DNA of 53,883 nucleotides, the filler included, from Sphacelaria rigidula (taxonomy: Eukaryota): assembly GCA_964200075.2 (NCBI GenBank). It is 4 parts of 4 records of this genome, joined end to end, with 100 filler letters (N's around TTAATTAATTAA, not from the genome) between each part and the next. Parts side by side here need not be neighbours in the genome. Positions count along the whole stretch, not along the records: positions 40,490 to 53,883 come from CAXNAA020002911.1; 3 more parts are not named here. One strand, given 5' to 3'. Both the position numbers and the translations under genes were made by a program. Shown in pieces: positions 5,250-53,883 of this stretch. Every line of letters starts with the position of its first letter. The first letter of the stretch is position 1. The notes below the pieces were generated by a model. That model saw nothing but the letters and a program-made list of their open reading frames with translations, made no database searches and had not been told where the DNA came from.

Positions 5250-5308
5250 CGTCTCGAATGGGATGCGTGGTCAATGGTCAAATGACGAAGGCAAGCAACA
5301 AATGAGTA
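5250..5308 (+). mobile_element. Short 3'-end copy of non-LTR family A
   Basis: CGTCTCGAATGGGATGCGTGGTCAATGGTCAAATGACGAAGGCAAGCAACAAATGAGTA matches the copies at ~15583, ~40002, ~40224 and ~41553 (reverse complement). Confidence 0.8.
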
Positions 5309-7950
5309 TCCACACACACACACACCCTACACCAACACCCCACCCCGTACCAACTACCGACCCCTCGGTGATCAGTTTTCGGGTCCTGATAAATCATCAA
5401 CCGGGAATCACATGTACACTCACCTGAAATAGTGGTCATCACTGGTAACAGAGTACGGCAGTGTGAACAGATGAAGGATCGGACAAATCAATGAGTCTTC
5501 TGGAAATTGCTTGGCTTTAGTGTAACGGATTCGAATCGTACGAATTGATCCCTAGGTCTTATTTTCAGCGTTGCAACCCAGGTACACGCAGCCCAGACAC
5601 GTGGAATGGCGCAAAAGTTGCGTGGATTACCCTTGGACCAGCGGTCAACTTTTTCTCCCTTTNNNNNNNNNNCCCTTTTGGGCAATCAGGCCAAAGATAT
5701 CGTGAATTTGGTGATTCGTAGTCGTGATGATTCGTCCTAACCGTGAAACAGATGAACTCTCCCCATGGAAGTCACAGAGAAAGGGACTTTCCATTCCCGC
5801 AAATCACCAGGACAAGAATAGCTGAGGGTCAACCCGTTGATCGTGAAGCCGTCGATTCGACTTCCACGTATCCCAATGCATCCCTTTGCATTAGCCCTTT
5901 CGGGACCGGATCCCCACTAACACAGGGTTGACCCTGTGTCAGTGGAAGAATAAAAAATGAGTCTTCGAGCGACCTGCCCAATCATGGTGAGGCGAAATTT
6001 GTAGACCAGACCCGAAGGACCAGCGCAGGGATTGTTGTCGAGTGTGATGCCACTGCAAAGATCGTGTGGGGGCCCTATCCCAGATAAGCTTCTCCAGGTT
6101 TTCAAGTGCAGGATGGTCGCAGCTTGGTTTTATGGTATTACTTGCACTCAGTATACCATTCCCAAGTTTTTCCGGAGTGTTTTTTGTGTCCGAATTCTGT
6201 ACTAAAACGTAGTAATTTACACTAACACAGGGTGGGCCGGGAAAAAACGGGAAGGAGTGCACATGCCACAATGTGGTCATTTTCACGAGGCACAAAATCG
6301 AGGTGGGCTGTGGGAAGACAAAAGGAGCTACCGTCATGAATTCTGCGTATCCCTCTGCCGATGACCTGTAGTGTGCAGTCCACATGTATGTTGTGGACGG
6401 GGATGACAAAGCTGTATATAGGCAGCTGATTTCGGTAGCTGAGAATTGCCCAGAACGTGCAAGGAAGTTTGCAGCGGCAGCTGCTGCTTCAGTTGGAGAG
6501 GCGTACTAGACTGTACTGTACTAGACTGTTGAATGCATGCGCGCCGCAACGCTAATACCCTTCGAAGAGAATTTGCCGCATGCAACAAGGTGGGAAATGG
6601 CGGCCCACCCCTCGCCACAAAGGGCTGTGTGGCAAGGTGATGGGGACAAAAGTATCATCCGAAGCCACAAGTGGCGGGCGGCCCGCCGGTCGTCGCGTCC
6701 CGTTGGAAGCTCTTGACCACGACCCATACTGCTTGCTGCATTAGATGTACACCACCTAATGCGCACCCTGCACCTGAGACTAGATTGGAACTTTCGGTCT
6801 TGTCATAACCCTGCGGTTACATGAACGGATTATCAGCAACACGCCATTGTTTCGTGCAGACGCCAGACACGTCATTCCTGACCAGCCTCATTGGCCGTTC
6901 TGGAGGCCCGGTCCCAAAAGGGTTAAAGGTTCTGCAAGGAGTGCGTCTGCAGTAAAGATATCGGTCAAAAAGGTTAACGCCAAACATGACACCCCCCCGT
7001 CGAGACAGTACTTTTGCTACGCCATAATGAACTGTCCTGTTCTGAATCCATAAGATGTGTGGGATGGATGAAAAAAGGGATTTGCCTATTGAGCGCCAGG
7101 CAGATAGATGGACACCTACAGTCTCGCGCGAAATAGAAATGAAACAAAGGTCTCGGAACAGAATTGGAGCTCTTTTCATCCCCTCGCGCACTGCTGCAAC
7201 GCCCAACCCCAGATCTAGACGCATGGGCTTGTTGATTGTGGTCTACATGACATGTTACCGAAGAAGTTTCAGCGCATAGCAGCGACGACAGCGCGCGCAC
7301 GACCGTGCTTCCTGCCCTGAGCATCTCTACAGTCGATATCGAAATGACTTTTCTACAGATTGTCATGATCTAGAGGGTGTGCCAGTACTCATCTACCTTC
7401 GTTTGCCAGCCCTGTACCCTCCCAGGAGATCATGATATGGAAGTGAGTGCACAACCATGTCGACGTATGTATTCACTCACGGTACACGGAATCTGGGCTG
7501 CGAGGTCGCCATTTTGAGGGCCTATCGGCGGTATATCGGTATTCGCTTAATTTAATTTGCTCGTTGGCCGAAAGAAGCTGAAACTTGGTGCACGTACTGC
7601 CTGTTTTGTGTCCAACTAGTGCACCAAGTTTCATGGTTGTGCGTCCGACCACGGTCGAGAAATGCATAAGCAAAGTTTTCGTACAATGATTTTTGTATGC
7701 CGGCCAAGTGCGGGCAGCCACAAATACAGGGCGGGCATTCCGTTTCTTTCATTTTATTCTCACTACCGTTGTCATTTTTCTTTCGCCGAATGTGATCACG
7801 GCATCAACAGACGAGACGCACGTAGGTGGCCATATTGTGGTTGAAAAGTCGTGTGTATTATCCCTTCCTCGAGCTTCCTTTAGCAAGTGTTTCCATTTTC
7901 GTTTTACGTTGGGTATGTCAATCTTGTGGGTAAGTCAATCTTTTGAATAA

Positions 7951-13397: not shown

Positions 13398-13497
13398 NNN
13401 NNNNNNNNNNNNNNNNNNNNNNNNNNNNNNNNNNNNNNNNNTTAATTAATTAANNNNNNNNNNNNNNNNNNNNNNNNNNNNNNNNNNNNNNNNNNNN
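13398..13497. other. Assembly gap with TTAATTAATTAA linker
   Basis: N44-TTAATTAATTAA-N44; the same 100-nt structure occurs three times. Confidence 0.95.
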
Positions 13498-15582: not shown

Positions 15583-15645
15583 GCTTCGTCTCGAAAGGGA
15601 TGCGTGGTCAATGGTCACACGACTAAGGCAAGCAACAAATGAGTA
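15583..15645 (+). mobile_element. Short 3'-end copy of non-LTR family A
   Basis: Matches the family A consensus; CCCCACTGT at 15574 recurs at 15752. Confidence 0.8.
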
Positions 15646-15974
15646 GCACAGACGGCTTGTCCCCCCACCNNNNNNNNNNTCGCGAAAGGGGTGGGTTGTC
15701 ACTTGTCACACCCCAAAGCAAAAAAAAAAATGAGGGGCCCCCCCCCCCCCCCCCCACTGTACCGTACCATACGTTTCCCTTCTTCACGTTACTATCAATA
15801 ACCGCGGGTCTGCGCGCCCCGATAATGGGTGTTGATGTCGACCATCGTGCAGATGCAGCTGTAGAGTTTTGTGGGTAATTATCACCACCTACGGTGCTGT
15901 ACTCCTCACGCAGCGGACAGCGTACGCGATAAACTCGGTATTTGCGCTGACCGAACACTCAGAATACAAGCATC

Positions 15975-24759: not shown

Positions 24760-26894
24760 AAATCAGGAAGGCAGTACCGTGTATTCGCCACCTAGTCCAA
24801 CGGAACCAAGCAACCGAAACTCAAGGTGACAGTGACAATATGAAAGAAAAAGGAAAGCGAGCGCTGTATTGTCCGTGCGTAATGAATGCGTCATGCACCG
24901 CGGTGCACCCGTAATAAGACCTATTTGCTATGCGTTATTGTGTCTTTTGTTTTGTGTTTCGCGAATGTAGTAGTATGTCTCTGACCAACAAAGTGACTAG
25001 CTGTGCAAATATACATACAGGCAGCATGTGCGCTATATATATATATATATATATATATTGCGTGAGTTTTGCCTTGTTGAGTGCGATGTACTTGCATTGC
25101 AGGCTGTCGTGGCCGTGACGGTGGGGAGGGGTTGGTTCCGTAAAATGGCGAGGATTGGAAGCGGGCCGCACGGTTCGTACCATTTATTCGTTTGGAGGGA
25201 GGGGGGAGTATTTAACTTCGCGATTACTGACTTCGTCGCATGGTTGGTGGTACACCTCTTCATAGTCTGGTCTACTGTAGTGCCGCAAGTACCGTGCTGC
25301 ATTTTGCCCATGTCCGGTGTACGCGGGGTGCACTAGTTGTGTAGCGAGTGAGTGAGAGGGCACAACGCAAGGCGTTCGAAAGTTTCGTTGTTGCGTGGCT
25401 GAAATGGGGTTGCGACGTTTTGTCGCTGCGATATGTCCACATCATTCTATTCTTGTTCGCGAAAAACACACGGATTAAATTTGCTTTTATTCGTTTGTTT
25501 GCTTGAAACGCTTTTATTTTTCATATCTTACTTTTAGGAACTAGATTGACGTGTACATTGGTGGGTAAAGAGAGTTTCCTTCTCTCTTTCTCTGCCTTCA
25601 GTTGTTGACGTGTTTGTTTCTGCGGTTGTTCCGCGGTGCAGTCGGTCGACTGCATTTTAAACCCGAGGGAAAATGTGCCCGTTTTCTTTTCCTAGTATGC
25701 TCATGACGGTTTATCGTGGAGAAAATCTGCGTCGGTTATCCGCATTTCATCCGCACAGGCCGTATAATGAGGAGAATCACCGCAAGGCACAGGAATGTGG
25801 CCTCCTCGACTTTTTTTGTCAAGCGTATATTCGTGTGTGGTGTGGGGTAAGGCTTCTATGAGAGAGCGGGATCAGTTGGAACATCAACGCAATCCCTGCT
25901 CTACTGGAAGACGGGAACAGCAGACGCTCACAGTTTCTCCATGGGCAAACGTTTTGCTGGGGATAGATGCGATTCGATCGAACCATGAGGTCGCTCCTTC
26001 GGGAAGGGCAAACCTATGTGGTAACTGTCCGCAATAAGCCCCCCTCGCTCACCACTTGGTGAGCAATCTTTGTGCTGACGCGCTCTCCGATTAACCTGAT
26101 GGGGCCGAGCGCCAGGGAAAGGATGCTGGGAAATGAGGGGCAAAGTATATTTTCATGTTTCTTTACTCGTTGTGGGTGGTACTGGTTGAGAGGTGACGAT
26201 TGTCACGTAAAAAATAAGGAATATTTTTTAGGCTTTCCCGGTTGGTGGAGAAGACCCTGAGATACTGATGATTCCTATTTTCAGACGTTTTCAATGTTTT
26301 CTTCGCAGTCCAAGTTAATTGACGACCTTGCCATGAAATTTGGACCTTGTTCATCTATCTACAGTGACGGTTACTGTACTGTGGTGAAGAGTCACGACGG
26401 CAGTTACTCAAAATGCTAGTGGTGTTTTTGTTTTTTTGTTGGTACTTGTGTAGTGAACATAGTTATGGCAATGCTATGAGTATGATCTTGATCGGGTCGT
26501 GGCGCCAGTCGAAATGGGGGAACAGCACCTCGTGTACAGAGGTGGACCCGCCTGAACCGAATACAGAGGAAGATGCAACGCATACCGCGAGTGACACCCC
26601 AGGATCGTGTGATGAGGCACACACGACGCATTTGATGCGACGTATCTGAAGGGAGAGTGTAGGCCGATTTCACCCTACAAGTTACGATACGGGTCAGCGC
26701 AGGTGGTTTGCTGTACAGTACTGTTACGTGTGGATGATGAAATCATGGATAATTTGGTTCCATTCAGCCCTGTAAGGTCAAGTCCACCGAACAAATTAAC
26801 GGCGTGAAATCGCATTCTGACTTTTCGCCCAGCACACATACCCCCCCGCCCCCCAACCCCAAACACCGCCCCAAAACAAAACAAAAAAAACAAA

Positions 26895-26994
26895 NNNNNN
26901 NNNNNNNNNNNNNNNNNNNNNNNNNNNNNNNNNNNNNNTTAATTAATTAANNNNNNNNNNNNNNNNNNNNNNNNNNNNNNNNNNNNNNNNNNNN
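26895..26994. other. Assembly gap with TTAATTAATTAA linker
   Basis: N-run/linker/N-run, 100 nt. Confidence 0.95.
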
Positions 26995-30700: not shown

Positions 30701-31569
30701 CTGACTTCAACTCAACCCGGAAGCCGTCACATGTTTCAATGTAGGTGTGACTTGCAGTAAATATCCTAGTCGATGAGAAATGATGTTAACGGACGCCTGG
30801 TGCGTGATTTACGTCTTTGACGTGTAAGACTACACGACGTCCGTCAGATGTAAAGACAAGAGTCGAACTTCCTCTGCCCACGATCGGGTAAGTACCGCCG
30901 CCCGCACACCGCAGTACCCTATCCCTGCATTCTCGGTACTCCGTCACCTTACTAGAACCTGGCGAAAAACGTTGGATTGTCCCCCTGTCAAACACCCGCC
31001 CCCATCTTGCTGATCTACACCCCCCGTCTCCATAACAAACGCACACTCGCCGGTGGTGTGTTCGGCGGCCTTCGTCGTGTCTATGCTAGTGAAAGACTCC
31101 GCATCAGCATCCGAGCACACGGAGTTGTCGTAGACGACGTCGCTTACCAAGCCCATCGCCATAACCACATCTCCTCTAGACTTCGGGCAGTCAAGTAGCT
31201 GCTGCTCTCTCTTGCCGCACTCACTACAGTACCTGTCCGGACAGTCTCTCGACCGGTGTATCGTCATCTTCTGACAGGTGTGGCATCGCATCATCGTCGC
31301 AGCCCCCGATTGGCTGTTCGACCGACGACTGGCTGCTTTTTCCCTGTTCCTTGTCGCCACCGCGACCTGCGTCCTGGCTCTTTCCCGGTTTTCCTTTCCG
31401 GCGCGGGCCGTTAAGTCTACCAGGTTGGCCCTTGACAATAAGGGCCTGGTCGCCTGAGGAGTTCTTCTTTCCCTTGGCGAGTTCTGCTTAAAACGTGCCG
31501 ATGCGAAACGTCTTCGAATGACCCTGACATGATTTCCCTCGTGAGTGGGCCCTCCCGGTCCTCCAGCGC

Positions 31570-32502
31570 TTACTTCTGAAAATTGCACTCCGGGGGGAGG
31601 GCATTGACAAATTTAAGGAGGGTTTGGACCTCCGTCAGGTTGATGTTGGTGCCATATGATCTTAAATGCCTCGCCACTTCTTCCATCTCGATCAGTTTTT
31701 GGATCGGGTCATCACGAACGCCAATCTTCACATGATGATACTTGTCTAGCAGTGGTAATCTAGCCCCATTTGTCTTGGGACTGTCCAACTCGTTCGGTTC
31801 ACGCCATACAGCTGCAGGAGAAGGAATTCGGAACATAATACTTTGATCCCTCTTGTGGTCCAGACTCGCCACCAACATCTGCCTTGCTCTTATGCTTGCG
31901 ACTAGTATGTCTTTTCCGTGTCTTGCCTCTAGGAAACGCACGGGTAGCTTTGTGTTCCCCACCTCCACATCCTGCGAACTATCGTCCGACACGGTGAAAA
32001 GCCAATCAACTCCGTCGCTCCTCGCGAAATCGATAAGCTCGGGTTTGTAGTGGAGTAATTCCGAACTTTTCCCAGAAACCTTCGGGACAGAAGCCTTGAA
32101 AACTGGCAAACCAACAACGTTTTGGACACTTGGTCGATCATGACCGTACACAGCGACAGGCTCACGTGCGGGGTCCATGCCCCTTGCTCCGTCGCTTCCA
32201 GCCCTGTGGTCGCTCTCGCTCGGGGGCTCCCTGCTCGCCTTCGCGGCTGCGTCGTCGGCCTCGAGATGTGCTAGGGCTGGCTGATCCATCAGCCGGGGGG
32301 TATTGCGTCGTTTGGTCTCCTTCAGGAGACCCATCGCTTTCGATGACGTCGCTCCATCGCACGCCATCGGACTCGTGATCTTCAATATCATTGACTCTAC
32401 TCTGTAATACAGTTTGTCTGGACCGTACATCCCTATAAGATCAGTCAGTGCACTAAACTGACTGTTGAACTGGCTCACCATGTTCTCAAATTGAGCAGTC
32501 AT
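31570..32502 (-). pseudogene. gag: copia gag
   Basis: 310-aa ORF with copia gag-like motifs; a frameshift separates it from the zinc-knuckle region. Confidence 0.8.
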
Positions 32503-40001: not shown

Positions 40002-40076
40002 GCTCCGTCCCGAAAGGGATGCGTGGTGAATGGTCAAACGACTAAGGCAAGCAACAAGTGAGTCCCCCCCCCCCCC
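40002..40076 (+). mobile_element. Family A 3'-end copy with 17-bp TSD
   Basis: CCACCCCCAATGCTAGT occurs at 39985-40001 and 40075-40091. Confidence 0.9.
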
Positions 40077-40223: not shown

Positions 40224-40300
40224 CTCCGTCTCGAAAGGGATGCGTGGTCAATGGTCAAATGACTAAGGCAAGCAACAAATGAGTACGCCCCCCCCCCACC
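40224..40300 (+). mobile_element. Family A 3'-end copy with near-perfect TSD
   Basis: CCCCCCAAA(A)CCAGCTC flanks both sides. Confidence 0.9.
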
Positions 40301-40389: not shown

Positions 40390-40489
40390 NNNNNNNNNNN
40401 NNNNNNNNNNNNNNNNNNNNNNNNNNNNNNNNNTTAATTAATTAANNNNNNNNNNNNNNNNNNNNNNNNNNNNNNNNNNNNNNNNNNNN
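40390..40489. other. Assembly gap with TTAATTAATTAA linker
   Basis: N-run/linker/N-run, 100 nt. Confidence 0.95.
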
Positions 40490-40550
40490 AAACACGAACA
40501 CCACCACACACAAGGAGGAGAGAGAACGAGCGAAGCAAGAGGGGGGGGGG

Positions 40551-40596
<46 letters not shown>

Positions 40597-41529
40597 CGAC
40601 AGGTGGTGGGCGTCAGTTCGCAGAATAGCCGAAAAGCTCATCAAGTCAACCATGTGTTTGAAAGATCCCCACGTAACATTACAAGCCAGGAACGAGGCCC
40701 GAGAGGAGCGGAGATACCATTCCGAGCAATCAAGGCTATCATAATCATCACTTCGTTCCCCTACACGTGGACAATTTTGCTGTCTAGCCGTATTCCTCAT
40801 TTTAGCCGAGACAATTCAGCCACAGATTACATGGGCACGAAGAACGCTTTTCATTTTGCTTTTAGTATGTGCCACCTGTCTGACCTCTCATATGTTGCCG
40901 GCATAGCTTCACACTTCAGTATTGTATAACACACAGCAGAGGCATCAGCAGCATGTAGTAGAATGAGTTAAGTGAAGAGCGATGGCACACTGACTGCTTC
41001 TTTTCTGTCGCATCCAGCGGAGACACACCACACACACTGAATCTGCATGCAATAGACTGCAGGGTCAAAACCGGTCAGGGGTTCTTCAGTACTATTTTCT
41101 ATATAGATGCCCAACATCCACATGATGATGGGAAAAGGTATTTTGGGTTGCGAGAATAGAGCTGTTGTGAACCCCAGATGTGGCAAAGTCCATCTCACTT
41201 CACCTGCGGGGAGATCGCTGTCTAAGGATTAAAAAGGAACGAAGAAACAGAGAGGAATAAGGGAAAAAATGGGACAAAAAGACTACTTTTTGTAAAGAAT
41301 ATCGTGATGGTCGTGTACTGTACTCGCACCATGAAAAAACGTTTTTTATATGTCTCGACATGTCTGACCTGTACTCCTCAATTACAACACCATTCAAGAT
41401 TACGATACATGTACATACGCGAAAGTAGATGGTTTCATAACATCCAAGCGGGACATAAGAGTGTCACCCGTCACATCAATCGCAACTTCCAGCTAACCTC
41501 TCGTCTGAAGCTCTGGCATGGGGTCTGTC

Positions 41530-42250
41530 GGGGGGAGGAGGGGAGGGGGGCGTACTCATTTGTTGCTTGCCTTAGTCGTGTGACCATTGACCACGCATCC
41601 CTTACGAGACGGAGCACCGTTCCGACTCCTAATAGAGATACCTTCAACACTACGACGCTCATTACGTTTCTTCCGCAGCTCATCACGTTTCTTCCATACA
41701 TTACACACAAACAAAATTACATATCTTATCCCCGTCCTGAGGGCGTCCCGCGTGCCTTCATTGTTTGACCATTGACCATACATTCCTCTCGAGACGAGCA
41801 CCGTTTCTACTCCTGATAAAGACACCTCCAATATTGCAGCGAACATTGCCTTCCTTCCATACATCACACAAACCCTTTACATATCTCGTCCCCTTCCTGA
41901 TTCGCCTTCTGTGGCCACCATTTATCTCTTGTAATAGTAATGGTTTTCTTTCTATTGCCGAGTGTATCGAGCGATTCCATGCCACCTTCATTTGATTCCC
42001 ACATTTCCCCCTTTAACACGTCCCATTCCTCCTTGTAGAGTTCACACTCTGCCAACATATGAGTTCTACTTTCTACAGCTCTGCCACAGAGATTCTGTGC
42101 ATCTACTTCCTCCTCCATTCGACTACTGGTAGTCGTCATAGCCCTGTGTATACATCGACGTAATATTTTCATCTCGCCCTTTCTTCTCAAGGTTTCCCTC
42201 AACGAGTGTTTCCTACATTCACCTCGGGGTATCATGCGCGGCATAATATC
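41530..42250 (-). mobile_element. 5'-truncated non-LTR retrotransposon (family A parent) with a duplicated 3' end
   Basis: Degenerate C-terminal CCHC finger LCGRAVESRTHMLAEC. The ORF ends GAPSRKGCVVNGHTTKASNK* and is followed by GTAC and a C-rich run. A second 3'-end copy lies at ~41750-41870. Confidence 0.75.
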
Positions 42251-42590
42251 TCGTCAGCATGACCGGATATCATAGCGAATCACTTCACGCGCAACAATCA
42301 GAGCAAAGCCACCAACGACCAAAGCAAGAAAATCAGTCCCTGCCGTGTCCATATATAAAGCAAACATCCACTTCAATCGTGGGGCGAAAAGCGCGCTTTG
42401 TGCTTGAATGAAACTACCTCGTGAAAACTGTTCCCTCTTGTAGGCCTAGTGTATATCTCTTTATCGGCTGCAACAAAAAAACGAAATACAGTGCAGTATT
42501 CGGAAGGTCTTGAAATATCGACCTGCGGGGGGTATGTGTCCTTGGGTACACTAGCCTTTGGAAGATGATCATATTTACGTGGCCACTAAC

Positions 42591-42668
42591 CTTCCCCGCC
42601 TCGATGTCCTGCGGCGCAAAGAAGGCGATCATGGGCATGCGCGGGTCGTGGGTGCCAACGAAGACCAT
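42591..42668 (-). CDS. SET-domain gene exon (MVFVGTHDPRMPMIAFFAPQDIEAGK)
   Basis: cccag|ATG and AAG|gttagt, 78 nt; SUV39-family SET-C motif. Confidence 0.9.
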
Positions 42669-43792
42669 CTGGGACAAACAGTGACAAGAAAAACAGAAGA
42701 ACGAGAAACTGGGAACTGAGAAAGACATCAAATGTAACACCAACAACGAAAACTTTTGAGAAAATGGCCAAAATCGTGTAAAGAAGCGTGCCGTGTTGTA
42801 TTGTGTCGTGTCGTGTCGTGTCGTGTCGCAAAATGAGATGGATTCATGTGGGCTTTCACATGGTGCATGAAGAAAGTGAACACTTATGCCACCACTTCAC
42901 AAAATCAATCATGCGAAATGTCGTTATGTTTGAAATACCAACGCCGAATCCTTCATTACAATACCTCCTTCTGGTCTACACCAAGCGCGCCTTGCACCGA
43001 TCACGCACAACAAAATGAAAACAGCTACTGGACATAAAAAAAAAATACAGTAAATGTTTTCCAATTTCGAGATGTAAACAAAGAACCGTTTTACGTTTGC
43101 AATTGTCATTCACGGCTTTCCCCCCCCCTCTCGAATGGGTACTGCACAAGAGCTTTTCCACTTGAAGCCATCAAGCAGAGGCCGGCCATTTCTACAGTAG
43201 TTTGCTGTTTGATAAGTTTTTTTTAGTCTACTCTTTGCATCTGTTTCCCCCGTGTGCTTTTTTTCTTCATTTTCCTTCAGCGAGTGTGTCCGTTTCGTTT
43301 CTTTTTCATCTCGGGTACGTTTATCGTGACGTCACCGCTGGATCCCCGAGGGATCCATCAATATGCGACAATCAATCGATCAATCAATCAAATTCCGACA
43401 GGGTCCCCTGCTGGGGACTACAAAGAAGGATGGGCACATGCATGTGAGACTGCTGAAAATGACGTGCACTCTGCCCGAGAGGGAGCCGCCCTCGTACGCT
43501 TGAGGAAAACACGTTGCATATTGCAGTCATAGATCGTCATGGTGACCGGTTATTGGGGGTTCTGCTCACAAGACACGCCCTCATTCAACAGACAAAATGG
43601 CGCTGCCTGATACGTCTTCGAAGCGCGTGTCATCATCCACCGCGCGTGTTTGCCATTTGAATCTGAGCGATGCCACCCGTTCGGGATTGGCTCTCCCCCA
43701 GGTTTGAAATCAACCTTCTGAGCCTGTCGATCGAAACCTACAACAGCAGCGGTGACTCGTTCCAATATACTCCAACAGATAAATGTACGGAC

Positions 43793-43873
43793 CTGCTTGA
43801 TGAGGTTACCATCACAGCTATGGTTGATGAAGCGTGCCACGTTTCCGTATGCGTTAGCATCGACGACCAGCAC
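43793..43873 (-). CDS. SET-domain gene exon (VLVVDANAYGNVARFINHSCDGNLIKQ)
   Basis: Canonical RFINHSC motif; tgcag|GTG and CAG|gtccgt, 81 nt. Confidence 0.95.
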
Positions 43874-45682
43874 CTGCATAAAGGAAAAAAGAGAAACAAA
43901 AGAGAAATATATATATACATATATATATTCATAAGCAAAATAAATCAAATCAAGGGCGCGCCGGTGTGCTCTTCAACACTACATTCTAGCAAAATTCCAC
44001 GTGAACGCGTATTCTGGTGTGAGCCGTTTGCTCGGGAAGCAGATAACACTGTAAGGCAAGTTACCTCAGGGGTGATCCTGCACACGTACTATAGAGTAGT
44101 CCACCTCCAGTGCACGTCCAGGTACATGAAAAGCTGGATATGAGGTTACATGAGGCTTGGTCATGGGATATTATCTGGAGTGTGACTATGACTGCTTGAC
44201 ATATGATGTGCTTGCAGGGAGAAATAGGGATCACTTCTGGTTTCAACGAAGACAGCTGTTTATAAAACTGCTTGAATCTTGAAGCCTCTGGAGCCCTCGA
44301 TAGGGAGGAACCCTCTGGAGCAGCACTGTCACCTTGTTCTGATTTCAGACATGTCTACAGTACTGTCGTATGACGTCTGTTCGAACTCCGTGATACAAAT
44401 GTAGCAAAACGGTAAAAATCTCCTCACTGTTTCTATCATTTTAGCATAAACCACTCATTTTCTTCCAGAAGAGTCCGTAGTTTCAAAGACATCAATCTAT
44501 CCGGCCCTAGGTACCCATCCCATATTTTGTCATCGTCGATTGGATCATGACCACCACTCCCACACCCCGTCGAGTCTTCGTCGAATCATCTTTGCAACTC
44601 ACTTTCTGATGCCCTCAAGGGCGAGAACCAGATTGTCCTCAAAACGACCACAGGATCTGTCGGGATTCAAACCCCCAACCCGCTGCCCTCAATGACTATT
44701 AGAGTACCATTTTAATTTAGCCCGCCGGGGCGCGGCGATATATTGCACGATATCACATTCCCGCAAAAACACACGGACAATACGATGGGTATCGTAGAAT
44801 ACGGTGTGTATAGCATCGATGCGTTGCATAGCACCCCCCTGAAAAAACGACCAGATAGTGACTTCAGGCTTTCGTGTCGATTAGAATCTGGGAGAGTCAT
44901 CTTTCCCTATTTTCATTACACCAAAACGCGAGAACGGCAGTTGAGAAAATGATTACCGCTTACCTCGAGTCTTTGACCGCGGTAATTTTACCACGGCATA
45001 TTGACGGCGTCGTGACTTTTTCTTCTAACTTTGCCGTCGTATCGGTCAAATATGAAATGTCACGACTCTACCACGCAGCGGCAACACAACATTGCCCTTC
45101 TATTTTTTGTGGAAGCCCGTACCGCGAGTCTTTGTCGGTCATTTTCCTGTTTTCGCACATTACACCATGAATGGCAAAGATCATGAGCATATTCGCTCTG
45201 ACCGCGGGTCTTGCATCTCCGCGAAAGTCTAAGTTTTACCCAGGAAAAGTCGAGGGCTCAAACATCCTCGTCACCCCTCGCATGCGTCAATCCTTGAAGC
45301 GTCGAGAATTAACTGTTCCGAGGATACGGCCTGAGAGTCCCACGGACGTTTGGAGTATGGCAATTACATGCGTCAATGACTCTTTCATGGCCCCCAGACG
45401 CCGAATCCAGAAACACAAACGTTTTTTTGGGACGATCTGTTGGGATTATGATAAGTGAGGCCGTTAATGTCAATGATTGAGCACGCAGATTGATGTTTTC
45501 GGGCACCTCGTGTGTGCTGTGAAAACGCTTACAGCGACGCGCCCGTAGAGGCCACAACTTGCACAAAATTTGTATGTGGCATACTCCATGCCGTGGTAGC
45601 ATCGGTCACCGCGCACGGTGGTCGCCCCTCACCAAATATGCATTTGCGGTACTGTCTGCTTGACTACATTGCATGATGCACT

Positions 45683-45684
<2 letters not shown>

Positions 45685-45724
<40 letters not shown>
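45685..45724. repeat. (TG)20 microsatellite
   Basis: Direct reading. Confidence 0.95.
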
Positions 45725-45725
<1 letters not shown>

Positions 45726-45909
45726 CACCGGTCCGGCGGGCCCAGACCTTCCTGTTCCCATGTAGGCGTTGTATCTTTCATCAAATAAATCATCCCGGGC
45801 CCCCAGGAACAACCAGACCCGGAAAGGCCCACCAGCACAACTTGGCGCCATGAGGAGTTACTCACGCCGGGAATGGCCGGTAGTCCACGGCGCATCAATG
45901 CCCACTTAC

Positions 45910-46196
45910 ATCTTTGGGAGAAACGCCTCGTCCGCCGGGTCCCCCTCTTGCTTGCTTTCCATCTCTATGCACATGCCCATGTCCATTTCCTCTTCCCTTC
46001 CCACGGTCTTCACCCACCCCGCCGCGAATCCTCAGAGGACTACCGGTACTATCGCCACCGCTTTCCGGAACATTTCCAGCATCAGTGCCCGAATTAGTCC
46101 CCACACCGCTCTCACCGTTAATCGCAGGAACATCATCAGGAACGTTTTCATTGTTGCCAACGGTCGCGGGGGAGGTAGAGGAAGTGACACTGGTAC
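45910..46196 (-). CDS. SET-gene exon, Gly-rich low complexity (GTSVTSS...LRIRGG...SPKD)
   Basis: Phase-1 acceptor ccag|GT matches the phase-1 donor of the giant exon; phase-0 donor GAT|gtaagt matches the SET-C exon. Confidence 0.75.
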
Positions 46197-46769
46197 CTGG
46201 CGGTGCATCATGACAACAGCACGTACTTGACATGAGGACCGCAAAGTAGTCTAGTCATAACGTGAGTTCATGAATGCCAAATGCGAATATTTCTGGCATG
46301 ACGTTTTACTGTAGTGGACGACTACTCCTGGACTTGAAAGATCGGACAATCTTGGGAAGTTGAAGAGTTCAGCTGGAAAATGACGGGCGAAGCGGAGGGG
46401 TCGAAGACTAGCAAAGCAACTTGGTGGAGCACATTATGCACCGAGCATAAGCGTGGGATGCCCGAGCAAAACATGAACGGAAATGTATACCTTTTGTTGT
46501 CCGGCAAAAAATCAGCATGTATGCCCCCGCAAACGTGTTGTCTCACAGCGGACCTACGTAGTCCGTCAAAATCCCATTCGCCGTGTACATCCGATGCATC
46601 GTACTTTTGATCTGATTATGATTGATTGTGGCACTATAACTGATCACCCATTGGTCCAGCCGTGGACGCATGATAAACGTACCCAAAAAAAGCAAAACTG
46701 AAACACTCGTTAAGAAAACGAAGGAGCAGCAAAAAGCCGAACAGAGCGACATAGTAGACAAAGACGTAA

Positions 46770-46814
<45 letters not shown>
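46770..46814. repeat. (AAT)15 microsatellite
   Basis: Direct reading. Confidence 0.95.
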
Positions 46815-46816
<2 letters not shown>

Positions 46817-47264
46817 AAAAAAAGCAAATCACAAAAAGAGATGGCCAACCTGAAAAAAAAAGTACTGTATCATCTATATTTGACATCGTATCTAGCCGCA
46901 CCCCCATCAACATTTTGACAACAACGCGGGATACAGCAGCAACACATTTCTCACACGCCCACCGCAATTTTCGGTATACACGATTTCAATCCCGAGAAAT
47001 CTCGAACACAAAATCCAAGTCAACACGCACACATCGCCCCTAATATCCATCGCGTGTAAGCAGACGCGACTTGCAGACCTGCGAGACGAGCTGACGTGGA
47101 AATTGGTTCCAACTAGCAATGTCCAAAACCAACGGATGACGTACACATTGTCAGCCTCCAGCAAACGGCCAGAAATCCATAAAAATAATCAAGGGCGAAT
47201 GCATATCCTAGCGCTCCCCCCCCCCCCCCCCCCCCCTTGAGATAAATCGGCTCACGCCACTCAC

Positions 47265-50200
47265 CTTCCTCGATGTTCTCCACCACACCGATAGCCGACG
47301 TTGGTGCGGTAGTAGGCACCGCACGCGGACTTTCCACATCCATACCTGTTGGTTCCGCGGCACTCTCTCCAGCGCCTGAACCGTTTGAACTATAAGAATC
47401 AACGGTCGATGACACCGTCGCAGGCACGACAGTCGTATTTTCCACGCCTGTGGCTGCTGGTACCGCGGCAGTCTCTCCAGTGCTTGATTCGTTTGAACTA
47501 GAAACGCCGACAGCCGACACCGCAAGCACAGACACCACAGGCGCTACAGCCGAATTGCCCACATCCGTGACTGTTCGTGCCGCGGCACTCTGGCCAGCAC
47601 TTGAACTGTCTGGACCAGAAGAACTGGCAACCAACGCCGCTGACACAGGTATCGCAGGCGCCACAGTCAGACTTTCCACATCCATGGCTGTTGGTGCCGC
47701 GGCATCCTCTCCAGCACTTGAACCATCTGGACTAGGAGCGCTCAAGGCCGATGTCGCCACCGTAGGCACCGCAGGCGCGACAGGCGCGACAGACGCTGCA
47801 TTTGTATTTTTCACACCCGTGACTGTTGGCGCCGCGGCACTCTCTCCAATTCCTGGATCATCTGGGCTAGAAGCGCCGATAGTCGACATCGCCGTCGTCG
47901 GCACCGCCGGCGCGACAGGTGCTGCAGTCGTATTTTCCACGTCCATGGCTGTTGGTGCCGCGGCACTCTCTCCAGCGCTTGAATCATCTGGACTAGAAGT
48001 ATCGACAGTAGACGCCGTCGTCGCAGGCATCGCAGGCACTACAGGCACTACATCCGAATTTTCCACGCCCGCGGCTATTGGTGCTGCGGTATCCTCTCCG
48101 GGACTTGAACCGTCTGCACCAGAGGCATCGACAGCTGATGCCGCTGTCACAGGCACCGCCGGAGCGACAGGCGCAACTGTCGGACTTTTTACGTTCGTGG
48201 CTGTCGTCGCCGCGGTACTCTCTCCAGCGCCTGAACTGTCTGGACTAGAAGCGCCGACAGTCGACGCCGCCTTTACAGGCACAGCCGGCGGGACACACGC
48301 TACAGTCGTACTTTCCACATCCGTGGCTGTTGGCGTTGCGGCACTCTCTCCAGCGTCTGAACCCTCCGGGTTAGGAGTATGGACAGCAGACGCCGCAGGC
48401 TCAGGCACCGCAGGCGCGACAGGCACGACAGCCGGATTGCCCAAGCCCGTGGCTGTTGGTTCCACGGTCTTCTCTTCAGCGCTTGAACCGTCTCGACTCG
48501 AAGTATCGACAGGCGACGTCGCCATCACAGGCACCGTCGGTGCGGCAGATGCTGCAATCATATTTTCCACGTCCATTGCTGTTGGTTCCGCGGAACTATC
48601 TCCAGCGCTTGAATCATCTGGACTAGAAGTATCAACAGTCGATGCCACCATTGTGGGCACCGCAGGCGCTACAGCCGGATTTCCCACGCCCGTGGCTGTT
48701 TGTGCTGCGGCACTCTCTCCAACACCTGAGCCGTGTGGACTAAAAATATCGGCAGCCGACGTCGCCGTCCCAGGTACCGCAGGTGCGATAGGCACAACAC
48801 TCGTATTTCCCACGCTGGTAGCTGTTGGTGCCGCGGCATCCTCTCCAGCGCCTGAATCGTTTAGACCAGAAGCACCGACAGTGGACGCCGCCGTCACAGA
48901 CACCGTAAGCGCGACAGTCGGACTTTTCACGTTCGTGGCTGTTGGTGCCGCGGCATCCTCTCCGGCGCTTGAACCCTCTGGGCTAAAAGCACCGACAGTC
49001 AACGCCACCTCCGCGGGCACCGCAGGCGCGACAGCTGGATTTCCCACGTCCGTGGTTGTTGGTGTCGCAGCATCCTCTCCGGCGCCTGAACCGTCTGGGC
49101 TGGAAGCGTCTGCGGCCAACACCGCCATCCCAGGCGCCACAAGTGCGTCAGTTTGACTTTCCAAGTCCATAGCTGTTGGTGCCGCGGCATCCTCTCCAGC
49201 GCCTGAACCGTCTGGGCTAGAAGCACCGACAGTCGACGCCACCTTCGCCGGCACCGGAGGCGCGACAGTCGGACTTTTTACGTTCGTAGCTGTTGGTGCT
49301 GCGGCATTTTCTCCGGCGCCTGAACCGTCTGGGCTGGAAGCACCGACAGTCGACGCCACCTTCGCCGGCACCGGAGGCGCGACAGTCGGACTTTTCACGT
49401 CCGTGGGTGTTGGTGCCGCGGCATCCTCTCCGGCGCCTGAATCGTCTGGGCTAAAAGCACCGACAGTCGACTCCACCTTCGCGGGCACCGCAGGCGCGAC
49501 AGCTGGATTTCCCGCGTCCGTGGTTGTTGGTGCCGCGGCATCCTCTCCAGCGCCTGAACCGTCTGGGCTGGAAGCGTCTGCAGCCAACACCGCCATTCCA
49601 GGCGCCACAGGCGCGACAGTTCGACTTTCCACGTCCATGGCTGTTGGTGCCGCGGCACTCTCTCTAGCTCCCGAGCAATCTACATTGGAAGCACCAGCAG
49701 TCGGCGGTGCAGTCGCAGGCACCGCCGGGGTGACAGGGGGCACAGTCGGACTTTTCACGTCTGCGGCTGTTGGTGCCACTACACTCTCTATAATGCCTGA
49801 ACCGCTTCGACTAGAAGCGTCGCCAGCCGACGTCGCTGTCGTGGGCGCCGTCGGTACGACAGGCGCTTCAGTCGGACTTTCCACCTCCATGGCTGTTGGT
49901 GTCGCGGCACTCTCTCCTTCGCCTGAACTGTCTGGAGTAGAATCGCTTTTCATTGAAGACCCGCTTCCCGCAGGCTGTGTGCTAATGCTGTTTTCAGGGC
50001 CCAAGCAGTCGAGAACATCAGAAGTAGTTTTACTTGAAGAACTGGGTTCTACATCTCTCTTATTTCCCGAGAGGGGACAATCAGGGGTGGAACCGGTGCT
50101 GGCAACAACGTCACCCTCTATGCCTTGTTTGGCGGCGCTGATCATGGCGGGTCCAGCGCCCGCGGGCGCTTTGACGAAAACATCCCCAACCGGCACCGAA

Positions 50201-53133
50201 GAGGTGGCCACGGGAATTTCTTCCCGGGGCAATCCCTCCGCAAGCGGAGCACTCATTGTGCTGATAGGCGCAACCACAGCCCCCGGAGTAGCACCACAGT
50301 CACCGGTAACCGCGGTGGCATTATCAGTCCTTTTGTTCTCTTCTTGAGAGAGTTCCGAAGTCATCTTTGTACCGACCTCAGCAACATCACCATCATTGCC
50401 ATCATCCATCTCGTTTGTCACCACGTTTTCCTTCTCCGGGCTTTTCGTGCTCTCCGACCCCACAACCTCAGGCGTTTCGAGCTCCATGGCATCCTGCACT
50501 CCATCTCTCTTGTGGGATTGCCGCGCCATCACGGCCAACCCTTCCTTCTCTCCCTCTACATTACGAACTTTACTCATGGCGCCACTCTCGCCTGCGCTGC
50601 CTACGTGTGCTTCACCATCACCATCACCACCACAAACACCACCCGCCGGAACTCCGTCCAACTTAACCTGAGACTTCACAGCATCTCTCGCCACCTCAGA
50701 AGTCGCCACGTCATGAACGCCTGCTGCTGCCGCCGCCGTCGCTACTGGTGACGCTGCCGGGGCGACACTCTTGCTCTCTTCGTCACTGGCGGTGGTGGTA
50801 ACGCTTTGAAGCTTCACCCCAGACACGGTCGTTGCAGCCGACAACACGTCAGGATTTGCCGGTGCAGCGGTACTTGATGTAGCCTGCGGTGAATTGTGAG
50901 GGCTTGCTTTTGAGACACTTGCTGTTGAGTCACCTGCCGTCGTCAGTGGCGACAATCCTTCCGGCTTCGCTGCAGCCTCTTTTGCTGCATCCGGCGGTAA
51001 GTCTTGGGGAGTGCATGTGGCGGGACTCGGTGTAGTCCTTGGCGGCGATTCTTGAGGCTTTGCTTCCGATAAAGTCGTTGCCGCCGATACCAACGTCTCG
51101 GGATTTGTCAGTGCGACGGTGCTTGTTGGAGCCGGCAAAGATCCTCCAAGTTTTGCATCAAACTCACTCGCAGCAGTCGATACCAACAGGTCGGGAGTGT
51201 CAATATCAACATTCGTTTTAGCCGGCAGTGATTCTTCGGGGATTGCTGTCGAGACACTCGTTGCAGTCGATGGCAGCAACCCTTCGGGCTTCGCGTCCGA
51301 TCCATTCGCCGCAGTCGACACCAACGCGTCGGGAGTTGCCGATGCGGCACTCATTGCAAGTGAGGACAAGTGTTGGGGGCTTGCTGTCGAGGCACTTGTC
51401 GCAGTCGACGACGGCAGTCCTCCCGACTTCGGTTCCGACCCACTTTTTGCAGTCGACACTAACGAGTCGGGATCTACCAGGGTGGAGGTATTGGTTGTAC
51501 TCGATGGCGACGATCCGCCAGGCTCTGCTTGCGCCCCACTTGCTGCATCCAGCAACCTCTCGGGATCTGCCGATGCGGCATTCATCTTAGTCGTCTTCGA
51601 TGCTTGGATGCTTGCATTTGAGACGTTGGTAGGTGGCGTCGGGGATCCTTCGGGCTTTGCGTCCGACTCACTCATTGCTGCCACGGGTGATCCCTGGGGA
51701 CATGCTGCCGAGACACAATTTGTAGTCGGTGGCGGTAATCCTTCCGGCTTCGCTTTCGACCGGCTAGTTGCAACCGACACCGACCCGTCGGAATTTTTCA
51801 ACGCATTGCTTTCCATAGCCGGCGGTGATCCTAGGGGGGTCGCTGCGGATACATTATTTGTAGTCGGTGGCGGCGACCCTTCGGGCTTCGCTTCCGATGC
51901 ACTCATTGACGTCGGCACCAACGCGTCAGCGTTTGTTTTAGTTGCCTTTGATGCTTGGTCGCTTGCTATCGAGGCACTCGTTGAAGTCGGTAGCGGCAGT
52001 CCTTCAGGTTTTGCGATGGACCCGCTCGTTGAAGCTGGTGGCGATCCTTGGGGGCTAACGTCTGAGACACCTGTTGAAGTTGTTGGCGACAATCCTTCGG
52101 GCTTTGCTTGCAATCCACTTCCTGTGCGTGGTGCCGGCACAGGTTCGCTGGCGGTGCCAGCAACGTCAGCATCGACGCCCGGCGGCGCCGGCAAGCCCTG
52201 CCCTGTTGTCGCCGAAGTGGCACTGACGGTATGTGTCGCTGATGCTATCTCGGTAGTTTTCGTTGAACCCGACGCCATCTCGGCGGTGGTAGCACTGGTT
52301 GGTGCAGCTGCTGGTGAGGCTGGGTCGACGGTTGCAGCGTTGGGGAGAGCCGTTGTTGTTGCTGTTGTGTCGGCAGATGCTGCTGCGGTCGGTTTGGTGA
52401 CGGTCCGTTCTGCTGCATCAACAGCAGGCGCGGCCACCTCATTGTCCACCTTTGCCGGATTGTTGTCCTGCGTCGAAGGGGCTGCTACTGGCGGGGCCGA
52501 AGGACGAGACCCCGCCAACGCTGTGGGCCGGGTTGGGCGAACCTTGTCCGTTTCTTTGCTGGTTGAAGGGTCGGTGATCGCAACAACGTCAGCAGCAGCA
52601 GCGGAAGAAGTGGAAGGAGCACTAGCGGAAGAACTTCCAGGGGTGACCGAGATTTGGTCACGGCCAACCTCCTGGTGTCTCGAACCGCCTCCGCTGGAAA
52701 TTGTCGGAGCCTCACCAGTACCCGCGTCGAGCTGTTCAGGATCACGACCGGTCCCTCGATTCGCAGAAGCACCAACAGCTGAGCCGTCTTCTCTCACTGC
52801 CGCACCGGAAGACGACTGTGGAGTTGGGGTGGCCCTAGAGGCGTGTGTATCTGTCGGCGGTCTTTGTGAAGGTTTGGCAGGAGCAAGAGGTGCAGCTTCT
52901 TTTGGTAACAAAGCTGATGGTGGCGCCAGCGGAGGTGACGCTGCTGTCGTCATGAAGGCTGTTCGCTTTCGTTCTTCTTGTTGCTTCTGCTGCTGCTGCT
53001 TCTGCTGGAGCAGACGCTTTTTCTTTTGCATCTTCGTTTCCAGCAGGTGCTGCTGCTGCTGCTTGTACGCCTCCCTCTCGCGGCGGTTCCATTCCTCGAC
53101 TTCTTCACGGGACATCGAAACTCCGCCCACCAC
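47265..53133 (-). CDS. Giant 5,869-nt exon, Ala/Ser/Thr/Pro-rich with two tandem repeat arrays; probably part of the SET gene
   Basis: Uninterrupted ~1,956-codon frame; CTAAC branch point and gggcag|GTG acceptor; GAAG|gtgagt donor. Confidence 0.85.
47290..49960 (-). repeat. Coding tandem array of about 22 x ~40-43 aa (SSPDGSGAGEDAAAPTATDVxxPTVAPxVP...)
   Basis: Counted in the translation; near-identical 120-nt units around 49170-49560. Confidence 0.9.
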
Positions 53134-53346
53134 CTGCCCATGCCGATCATACATTCATCCAGCGTTAGGGACGTGGAGACGATGGTATGTGCACCCTGAA
53201 GGAAATGTGCAATACACATCTCTGCAGTAGGCACTCCGCGGAGAAAACACAGTCAACTTCGTTGTAATGAGAGCATAGGGCTATCTCGACGGCCACACTC
53301 CGACATCTCCGATTCTGTAGGGCATGATCGACCTGCATCATAGACC

Positions 53347-53347
<1 letters not shown>

Positions 53348-53396
<49 letters not shown>
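53348..53396. repeat. (TG)n microsatellite
   Basis: Direct reading. Confidence 0.95.
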
Positions 53397-53402
<6 letters not shown>

Positions 53403-53823
53403 CACTTGAAATCCCAAAAATGCTTTGGGCCGAGCCGCTGACTTTCGGCAGTAGAACACTCGCCCTGAAAGCAAGTTTTTCGTTTAGACAAACCGGTCCT
53501 TGTCCAAAAATCACAACTATTTCACGGTAAGCACGCGACAAAAAAGAACAAATAATGATTTAATCGAACATTGTTTCGTCTCACGGCCAACATTGCAGCC
53601 CAACAGTTGGCGAAACGTCGCACAGAAAAAAAGACACGCTGCGGACAAATTACGCGGCCAGCAAACGCCTCATCATATCCTTCACATTGTTCGGGACTCA
53701 AACAAGGGAAACTCTCAAGACAAAGGTATTTGTTCTCTTTCATGCGAGAAGCCCCTTCCACGATCTGTGTTTCTCTCTGTAAAAAAACGGCGGTTTCAAC
53801 TCTGAAACATGTACGAATAATCC

Positions 53824-53883
53824 GGGGGGGGGGGTGTACTCATGATCATGCTTGCCATAGTCATCAGACCATTGACCTCGCAT
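53824..53883 (-). mobile_element. Family A-related 3' end with C-run (cut by the window edge)
   Basis: Reverse complement reads ATGCGAGGTCAATGGTCTGATGACTATGGCAAGCATGATCATGAGTACACCCCCCCCCCCC. Confidence 0.75.

Follow-up and report, generated by a model that had tools for sequence, protein, structure and literature searches.

In animal SETDB1, Eggless and MET-2 (KMT1E), a SET domain of the SUV39 clan is broken between its N-terminal half (SET-N) and its C-terminal half (SET-C) by a stretch of non-SET sequence. The two halves of SETDB1 fold together and the insertion, of ~350 amino acids (aa), loops out. The account in PMC8397983 gives the interruption as ~150 aa and describes it as regulatory, ubiquitination of K867 being needed for full activity. 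Here we describe a minus-strand gene of the brown alga Sphacelaria rigidula that appears to be broken in the same way, at positions 42591 to 53133 of a 53,883-nucleotide (nt) stretch of assembly GCA_964200075.2 (hereafter the window), in the part taken from CAXNAA020002911.1. By either figure, the SETDB1 interruption is several-fold shorter than that of this gene. We consider it probable that the gene encodes an extreme bifurcated SET protein whose N-terminal half lies outside the window and whose family has been annotated in brown algae before.

Bifurcated SET domains as a kind are already known from SETDB1, and a SETDB1-like Ectocarpus gene has been listed since 2011, when putative SETDB1 (Esi0162_0064) and EHMT2 homologues were given for E. 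siliculosus (PMC3145265). The histone H3 lysine 9 di- and trimethylation (H3K9me2/3) signal described for Ectocarpus in PMC7784034 is only weak, and PMC13076208, which also mentions two brown-alga-specific SET families, presents brown algae as largely without H3K9 and H3K27 methylation, H3K9 methylation being absent or only sporadic. That KMT1-type genes are kept and expressed in brown algae though H3K9 methylation is reported as weak or absent is an open question of their chromatin (PMC7784034, PMC13076208). What is new at the present locus is scale, with an interruption of at least 2,052 residues that holds two tandem-repeat families, at a site spanning a handful of residues in continuous SET enzymes. 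Among the papers listed by our literature search on bifurcated SET domains, none dealt with giant SET insertions, which is no proof of absence. This would be the longest SET-domain interruption known to us.

Gene structure and transcript evidence

The first-pass annotation of this sequence had proposed phase-compatible splicing of a 5,869-nt exon and a 287-nt exon onto SET-C, and exon lengths, open frame and splice joints all agree with it. The parts of the gene, in the order of transcription, are as follows.

53134..53883, minus strand: 3' end of the upstream intron, with acceptor AG at 53135-53134 (from sequence and contigs)
47265..53133, minus strand: giant coding exon (exon 1), 5,869 nt = 1,956 codons + 1 base, part of the insertion (from open frame and contig coverage)
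46197..47264, minus strand: intron 1, 1,068 nt, with a poly-G run and an (AAT)15 microsatellite
45910..46196, minus strand: exon 2, 287 nt, Gly/Ser/Asn-rich, part of the insertion, ending in phase 0 directly before SET-C (from joints and frame)
43874..45909, minus strand: intron 2, 2,036 nt, without a SET-N exon (from the direct joint and depth 0 in two bins)
43793..43873, minus strand: exon 3, 81 nt, first SET-C exon, with the NHSC motif (from Pfam SET and family profile)
42669..43792, minus strand: intron 3, 1,124 nt
42591..42668, minus strand: exon 4, 78 nt, second SET-C exon (from joint 42668>43793, tblastn and family profile)
40490..42590, minus strand: start of the downstream intron, with retroelement fragments, to the contig end (from bin depths and a weak zf-RVT match)

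Joined by their coordinates (53133-47265, 46196-45910, 43873-43793 and 42668-42591), the four exons of 5,869, 287, 81 and 78 nt make 6,315 nt, or 2,105 codons, free of stops, and their splice sites are all canonical AG/GT. Exons 1 and 2 account for 6,156 nt, or 2,052 codons, all of them non-SET, and the final 53 codons form the first two-thirds of SET-C; on its C-terminal side the split is thus seen directly, as non-SET codons running in frame up to the first SET-C residue. Across the giant exon the minus strand has a stop-to-stop open reading frame (ORF) of 2,013 codons (53154-47113), which is beyond chance, because the other two minus-strand frames hold only ORFs of up to 111 aa. Long ORFs are also found opposite the giant exon on the plus strand, at 47396-49153 (586 aa), 49157-50344 (396 aa) and 51056-53227 (724 aa). 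We rejected these as coding sequence and regard them as a by-product of stop-poor repeat sequence, the splice sites being oriented for the minus strand. Skipping both insertion exons together (53133-47265 and 46196-45910) would keep the frame and yield a compact enzyme.

Contigs of four sequencing runs (X1, X3, X8 and X5) were placed on positions 40500-53883. No run is recorded as RNA, and the RNA or DNA nature of each was judged from its splice joints and intron depth. Junctions 47265/46196, 45910/43873 and 43793/42668 are each carried by one contig in X1, X3 and X8 (depth 115-168) and by none in X5. The underlying joints, 46194>47263 and 43871>45908 (both with the cut at +2) and 42668>43793, read CT..AC on the plus strand, which is GT..AG on the minus strand. 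Within intron 2, X5 reaches depths of 72 and 26 in bins 44523-44969 and 45417-45863, respectively, whereas X1, X3 and X8 show 0 in both. Because joints and intron depth differ in this manner, we treat X1, X3 and X8 as RNA-like and X5 as DNA-like; an automatic guess of run type returned 'RNA?' for X1 and X3 and '?' for X8. Both junctions that had been predicted to lead from the giant exon onto SET-C (47265/46196 and 45910/43873) are therefore present in the RNA-like contigs and missing from X5. No SET-N exon is seen within 43874-45909, where the contigs splice 45910 straight onto 43873, nor does the giant exon show up as a separate gene, since it shares a contig with exon 2.

That contig, X3 record 10 (2,618 nt), spans 47263-47715 and 45908-46194, and both SET joints in X3 carry its depth (117.1), which places the giant exon and the SET exons on one assembled transcript. 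RNA-like contigs cover the giant exon at depth 62-190 and stop at 53134; in bins 49887 to 53015 their depth is 62-72, as against 27-90 in X5.

The transcript extends beyond the window on both sides. The first 3,500 letters of X3 record 15 (8,124 nt) match 49635-53134, as does part of X1 record 8 (8,211 nt), and the other 4,624 and 4,711 nt, respectively, are not on 53135-53883. The DNA-like contig X5 record 23, by comparison, passes straight through the acceptor region to 53338. The giant exon cannot be longer at this end, because an in-frame TGA precedes the acceptor by 24 nt. Taken with the departure of the RNA-like contigs from the genome at 53134, the continuation of X5 and the AG at 53135-53134, this identifies 53133 as the start of the exon behind a used acceptor, and at least 4.6 kilobases (kb) of mRNA lies upstream, outside the window. 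At the other end, ~1.7 kb of RNA contig follows exon 4, likewise outside the window. Since bin depths over 40500-42590 are 2-30 against a contig depth of 115, barring one uninterpretable high-copy bin, this downstream mRNA does not come from that interval, and the last coding exon or exons of the gene are not in 40490..42590.

Identity of the SET half

The ORF holding exon 3 matches the Pfam SET family (PF00856) at E 2.6e-5 over profile positions 46-78 of 105, with a score of 25 bits, over the gathering score of 22.4, and carries the NHSC-motif core of SET-C. A profile hidden Markov model (HMM) of SET-C from the brown-algal family described below matches exon 3 at E 3.8e-14 and exon 4 at E 1.8e-6. 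Exon 3 is 67-83% identical to its relatives (78% to P0040, 67% to P0037), the nearest match being a short fragment, P0010, at 83%, which may come from the closest lineage; exon 4 is 59% identical to P0040 (tblastn E 3.9e-6) and 48% to P0037. Against PDB sequences, exon 3 alone matches EHMT2 and EHMT1 best (E 8e-6), with KMT2A/B close behind. The relative P0040 has its best PDB matches in SUVH6, EHMT1/2, SUVH4 and SUV39H2 (E 2.6e-28 to 1.7e-21), and among the matches listed for it (at least 60 PDB sequences) the top 24 are all SUVH, EHMT, SUV39H2 or Clr4-type chains. These matches support a predicted assignment of the gene to the SUV39 clan (KMT1). The enzymes with solved structures that P0040 most resembles, namely EHMT1/EHMT2 (GLP/G9a), plant SUVH4/SUVH6, SUV39H2 and Clr4, differ from it in having a continuous SET domain: the counterpart of the interruption is 6 residues in EHMT1, more than 400 in the relatives and more than 2,000 in the window gene.

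We looked over all 53,883 bases, both strands included, for the remaining parts of a SUV39-clan domain (SET-N, pre-SET, the catalytic tyrosine motif and post-SET). The search used motif regular expressions, tblastn of the window with 25 different relatives in three runs, a comparison of 1,947 six-frame ORFs (15 aa or longer) with seven HMMs built on the family alignment, and Pfam scans of 300 different ORFs (four scans). Among the seven family profiles, the SET-C profile alone matched, and one of the 300 ORFs matched Pfam SET. The SET-N half (GxG and YxGE motifs) was found nowhere in the window by regular expression, tblastn or profile HMM, at least 4.6 kb of upstream mRNA lying outside it; nor did regular expressions or HMMs find a catalytic tyrosine motif of the ELxFDY type, ~1.7 kb of mRNA after exon 4 being off the contig, or HMMs the cysteine-rich pre-SET and post-SET flanks. 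The giant-exon ORF has no Pfam family at E<=1, and intron 2 (43874-45909) no SET-N match by Pfam, regular expression or family HMM. The earlier statement that the ~2,050 aa and the 2-kb intron are free of SET-N and pre-SET sequence accordingly stands, and extends to the whole window.

Three candidates were rejected. A post-SET-like match at 41589-41729 (E 0.048-0.49) lacks the cysteines and lies inside a very high-copy retroelement bin, and a Tudor_4 match at 25275-25520 (E 0.011) is a low-complexity translation on a different contig. A 'GFGV' motif at 42951, considered as SET-N, lies within intron 3, in the wrong order, and is not in the RNA contigs.

Brown-algal relatives with a split SET domain

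With exon 3 as the query, HMMER returned 34 matches at E<=0.001 from 1.84 billion representatives. Many are short gene calls that begin at the same acceptor and continue into the same exon (fragments P0012-P0018). Among the longer matches, P0037 (1,012 aa) is named at its source 'similar to SET domain, bifurcated 1 [Ectocarpus siliculosus]'; P0026, P0036, P0038, P0039 and P0030 are copies of it from Ectocarpus spp., and P0040 is EukProt g19367.t1. The layout of these relatives is pre-SET, SET-N, an insertion with a UBA-like domain, SET-C and post-SET. Pfam finds Pre-SET, UBA_4 and the C-terminal half of SET in P0037, P0040 and P0036, and the UBA_4 match lies inside the SET interruption in each (P0037 646-685, P0040 844-883, P0036 735-775; E 5.8e-8 to 1.5e-6).

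We mapped the position of the insertion by aligning P0040 with EHMT1, the N-terminal side of the split in the S. rigidula gene being outside the window. The alignment falls into two pieces (P0040 623-708 with chain 123-198, and 1244-1323 with chain 205-283), separated by 6 residues in EHMT1 and 535 in P0040. In the four of seven relatives examined that have both ends of the insertion present, it measures 421, 526, 534 and 560 aa. The comparison of insertion length among brown algae that had been suggested earlier thus sets at least 2,052 aa in S. rigidula against 421-560 aa, a predicted insertion some four to five times as long as those of the closest relatives.

Judged by sequence comparison, the window gene belongs to this Ectocarpus-type bifurcated-SET family. 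Identity to the Ectocarpus proteins is 67-78% over exon 3 and 48-59% over exon 4, these two SET-C exons meet at the same residue, the SET domain is split at the same point, and low-complexity sequence abuts the first SET-C residue in both. The Ectocarpus proteins differ in that the two tandem-repeat families of the window gene are not seen in them, and in that their UBA_4 domain and 'SPPSSP' motif were not found in the window; a UBA-like domain of the S. rigidula protein could lie upstream.

Orthology with SETDB1 is another matter. Pfam found no Tudor and no MBD domain in P0040, P0037 and P0036, so that the triple Tudor and MBD domains of the SETDB1 orthologue group are missing, a comparison that concerns the relatives only; P0040 has instead a sub-threshold ADD_ATRX finger, so that a weak ADD-like zinc finger and the UBA-like domain take the place of Tudor and MBD. 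The first-pass description of the gene as SUV39/SETDB1-like therefore holds for the SUV39 clan, from the PDB matches of P0040 and exon 3, and for a SETDB1-type split of the SET domain, and fails for SETDB1 orthology. AlphaFold2 modelling of P0037 (alignment of 9 rows) gave a mean predicted local distance difference test score of 36, with only the UBA-like helices confident, and is unusable for the SET halves.

In another SET subfamily, ~240 aa of Ala-rich low-complexity sequence runs directly into SET-C in P0001 (a Logan contig, 347 aa). Long low-complexity interruptions of SET domains may, from this case, be commoner than the SETDB1 literature suggests.

Composition of the insertion

The giant exon is of low complexity throughout (A 18.6, S 13.9, T 11.0, P 11.0 and V 9.5%), and the insertion is probably unstructured. 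Three parts of it can be distinguished.

52954..53115, minus strand: Glu/Gln/Lys/Arg-rich charged start of the giant exon (BLASTP, motif HMM)
50914..52107, minus strand: looser 'AKPEG'-type repeats, 9 copies, exon residues ~343-740 (regular expression on the translation)
47341..49959, minus strand: array of ~22 tandem repeats of 39-45 aa (117-135 nt), exon residues 1059-1931 (Tandem Repeats Finder, iterated HMM)

Tandem Repeats Finder reports periods of 117/126 nt over 47673-49942, and an iterated HMM recovers 22 repeat units (E 1.5e-9 to 4.4e-19). Among these units the pooled ratio of nonsynonymous to synonymous differences (pN/pS) is 0.83 (136 pairs of 17 units), a pattern in which, as we read it, composition and openness are kept and exact sequence is not. 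The 'AKPEG' units are spaced 31-122 aa apart, the eight gaps being four of 31, one of 41, two of 46 and one of 122. Aligned as a whole against the family with hhalign, the giant exon gave only a low-complexity match of 7% probability.

Weighing the explanations

Of the two readings left open by the first-pass annotation, an extreme bifurcated SET domain with SET-N beyond the window end is favoured over a half-SET protein by the at least 4.6 kb of upstream mRNA and by the succession of pre-SET, SET-N, insertion and SET-C in the relatives. Several observations weigh against it. Neither SET-N, pre-SET, the UBA-like domain, the catalytic tyrosine motif nor post-SET was found in the whole window. 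By profile HMM, the relatives' conserved 'SPPSSP' insertion motif was not found in the 2,052 codons, so that the gene may be a divergent paralogue; in the relatives the motif follows the UBA-like domain and precedes SET-C, a place that should fall within the sequence available here. At its charged start, the giant exon resembles the motif that follows the relatives' UBA-like domain, but not significantly (BLASTP E 0.039 for P0040 and 0.11 for P0038, with P0042 giving the fourth pair only, at E 9.8; motif HMM E 3.3). A homologue of the giant exon was not found at E<=0.001 among 8,000 candidates (proteins of 1,107-3,523 aa were searched, longer ones not), and the near-neutral pN/pS of the repeats would fit decaying sequence as well. 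As to the transcripts, the runs are only guessed as RNA, and X8 repeats the record lengths and depths of X1 and may be the same data. All contigs, DNA-like ones included, break inside the repeat array, so that the exact repeat number rests on the window assembly.

The alternative that survives best, which we nevertheless consider unlikely, is a half-SET protein in which SET-N was lost or never present, leaving a non-catalytic product that ends in a SET-C remnant; the upstream mRNA would then encode other domains or more low-complexity sequence, or be a long 5' untranslated region. Such a protein would account for the failure to find SET-N, pre-SET and the family's insertion motifs anywhere in the window, the upstream part of the gene lying outside the sequence read, and for an exon 4 merely 48-59% identical to that of the relatives. 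It sits poorly with the NHSC exon, at 67-83% identity, and with the relatives themselves, which have pre-SET and SET-N wherever the N-terminal half is in the record; the upstream mRNA, moreover, suffices for the ~700 aa that precede the insertion in P0040.

An expressed pseudogene, that is, a decaying paralogue of the Ectocarpus-type bifurcated SET gene whose insertion grew freely once the enzyme was not needed, strikes us as distinctly improbable. The repeat pN/pS, the retroelement fragments in the flanking introns and the little or no H3K9 methylation reported for brown algae in PMC13076208 and PMC7784034 would suit it, and against these stand 2,105 stop-free codons over four correctly spliced exons and the conservation of SET-C residues. 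RNA-like contig depth (62-190) also exceeds that of DNA-like contigs (~25-35), though contig depth is a poor measure.

That the giant exon belongs mostly to another transcript, or that exons 1 and 2 are commonly skipped to give a compact enzyme, is highly improbable: the two exons do jointly keep the frame (6,156 nt) and isoform ratios are not visible in contigs, yet in X3 record 10 the giant exon's 3' end is spliced to exon 2, that contig and the SET joints in X3 agree in depth, and no joint among those listed competes at the splice sites.

A proposed model for a probable bifurcated SET protein

If the protein is an extreme bifurcated SET protein, the single transcribed gene to which the four consecutive coding exons belong would encode a SUV39-clan lysine methyltransferase. 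Pre-SET and SET-N would come from the upstream mRNA, probably along with a UBA-like domain such as the relatives carry in their insertion, and the downstream mRNA would supply the catalytic-tyrosine motif and post-SET. As in SETDB1, the SET halves would fold together, with the insertion leaving and re-entering at the SET-N/SET-C junction as a disordered tether. Such a loop may have grown through tandem duplication of its two repeat families, whose exact sequence would have been little constrained, and growth by duplication fits the repeat structure. A further step, possible on the present sequence data and in our view doubtful, is that the enzyme is an active SUV39-clan methyltransferase whose catalytic fold accommodates a disordered loop, built of repeats and more than 2,000 residues long; its real substrate may be other than H3K9.

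Despite the size of the insertion, the gene is transcribed, correctly spliced and open. Were the enzyme active, it would set a practical upper bound on the loop length that the SET fold tolerates, and insertions of 421-560 aa to more than 2,000 aa offer a natural length series for asking what the insertion does. In the relatives, the UBA-like domain within the counterpart of SETDB1's interrupting stretch hints, by analogy, at a ubiquitin link. If an active enzyme does tolerate such a loop, the loop and the relatives' UBA-like domain could form a regulatory or scaffolding module, for example for ubiquitin-dependent activation like that at K867 of SETDB1 or for multivalent tethering.

Repeats, mobile elements and contig ends

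The introns carry microsatellites, (TG)20 at 45685-45724, (TG)24 at 53348-53396 and (AAT)15 at 46770-46814, and long G/C homopolymers at ~47220-47245 and ~40540-40600; many false joints in the DNA-like run arise from these homopolymers. A very high-copy, homopolymer-ended element occupies 41394-41840 and 53463-53883, at depth ~7e4 in RNA-like and 8e5 in DNA-like runs, and a weak zf-RVT Pfam match lies just upstream of it (41864-42253). The element probably represents the 3' end of a non-LTR (long terminal repeat) retroelement in the introns of the gene. Its tail motif has five copies in the window against 0 expected, with the following cores.

41552-41573, minus strand: tail-motif core
40265-40286, plus strand: tail-motif core
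40044-40065, plus strand: tail-motif core
15625-15646, plus strand: tail-motif core
5288-5309, plus strand: tail-motif core

The blocks of N at 13398-13497, 26895-26994 and 40390-40489 each consist of 44 N, TTAATTAATTAA and 44 N, and are artificial six-frame-stop linkers between joined contigs, whose order here need not be that of the genome. Because the block at 40390-40489 is such a linker, the gene's contig ends at 40490, and sequence below it is possibly not adjacent in the genome. Further gaps of 10 N lie at 5663-5672 and 15670-15679. On another contig, 30789-32502 (minus strand) gives weak Pfam matches to a copia-type gag (E 0.025) and a Pol beta-barrel (E 0.0058) and is possibly a degraded LTR retrotransposon.

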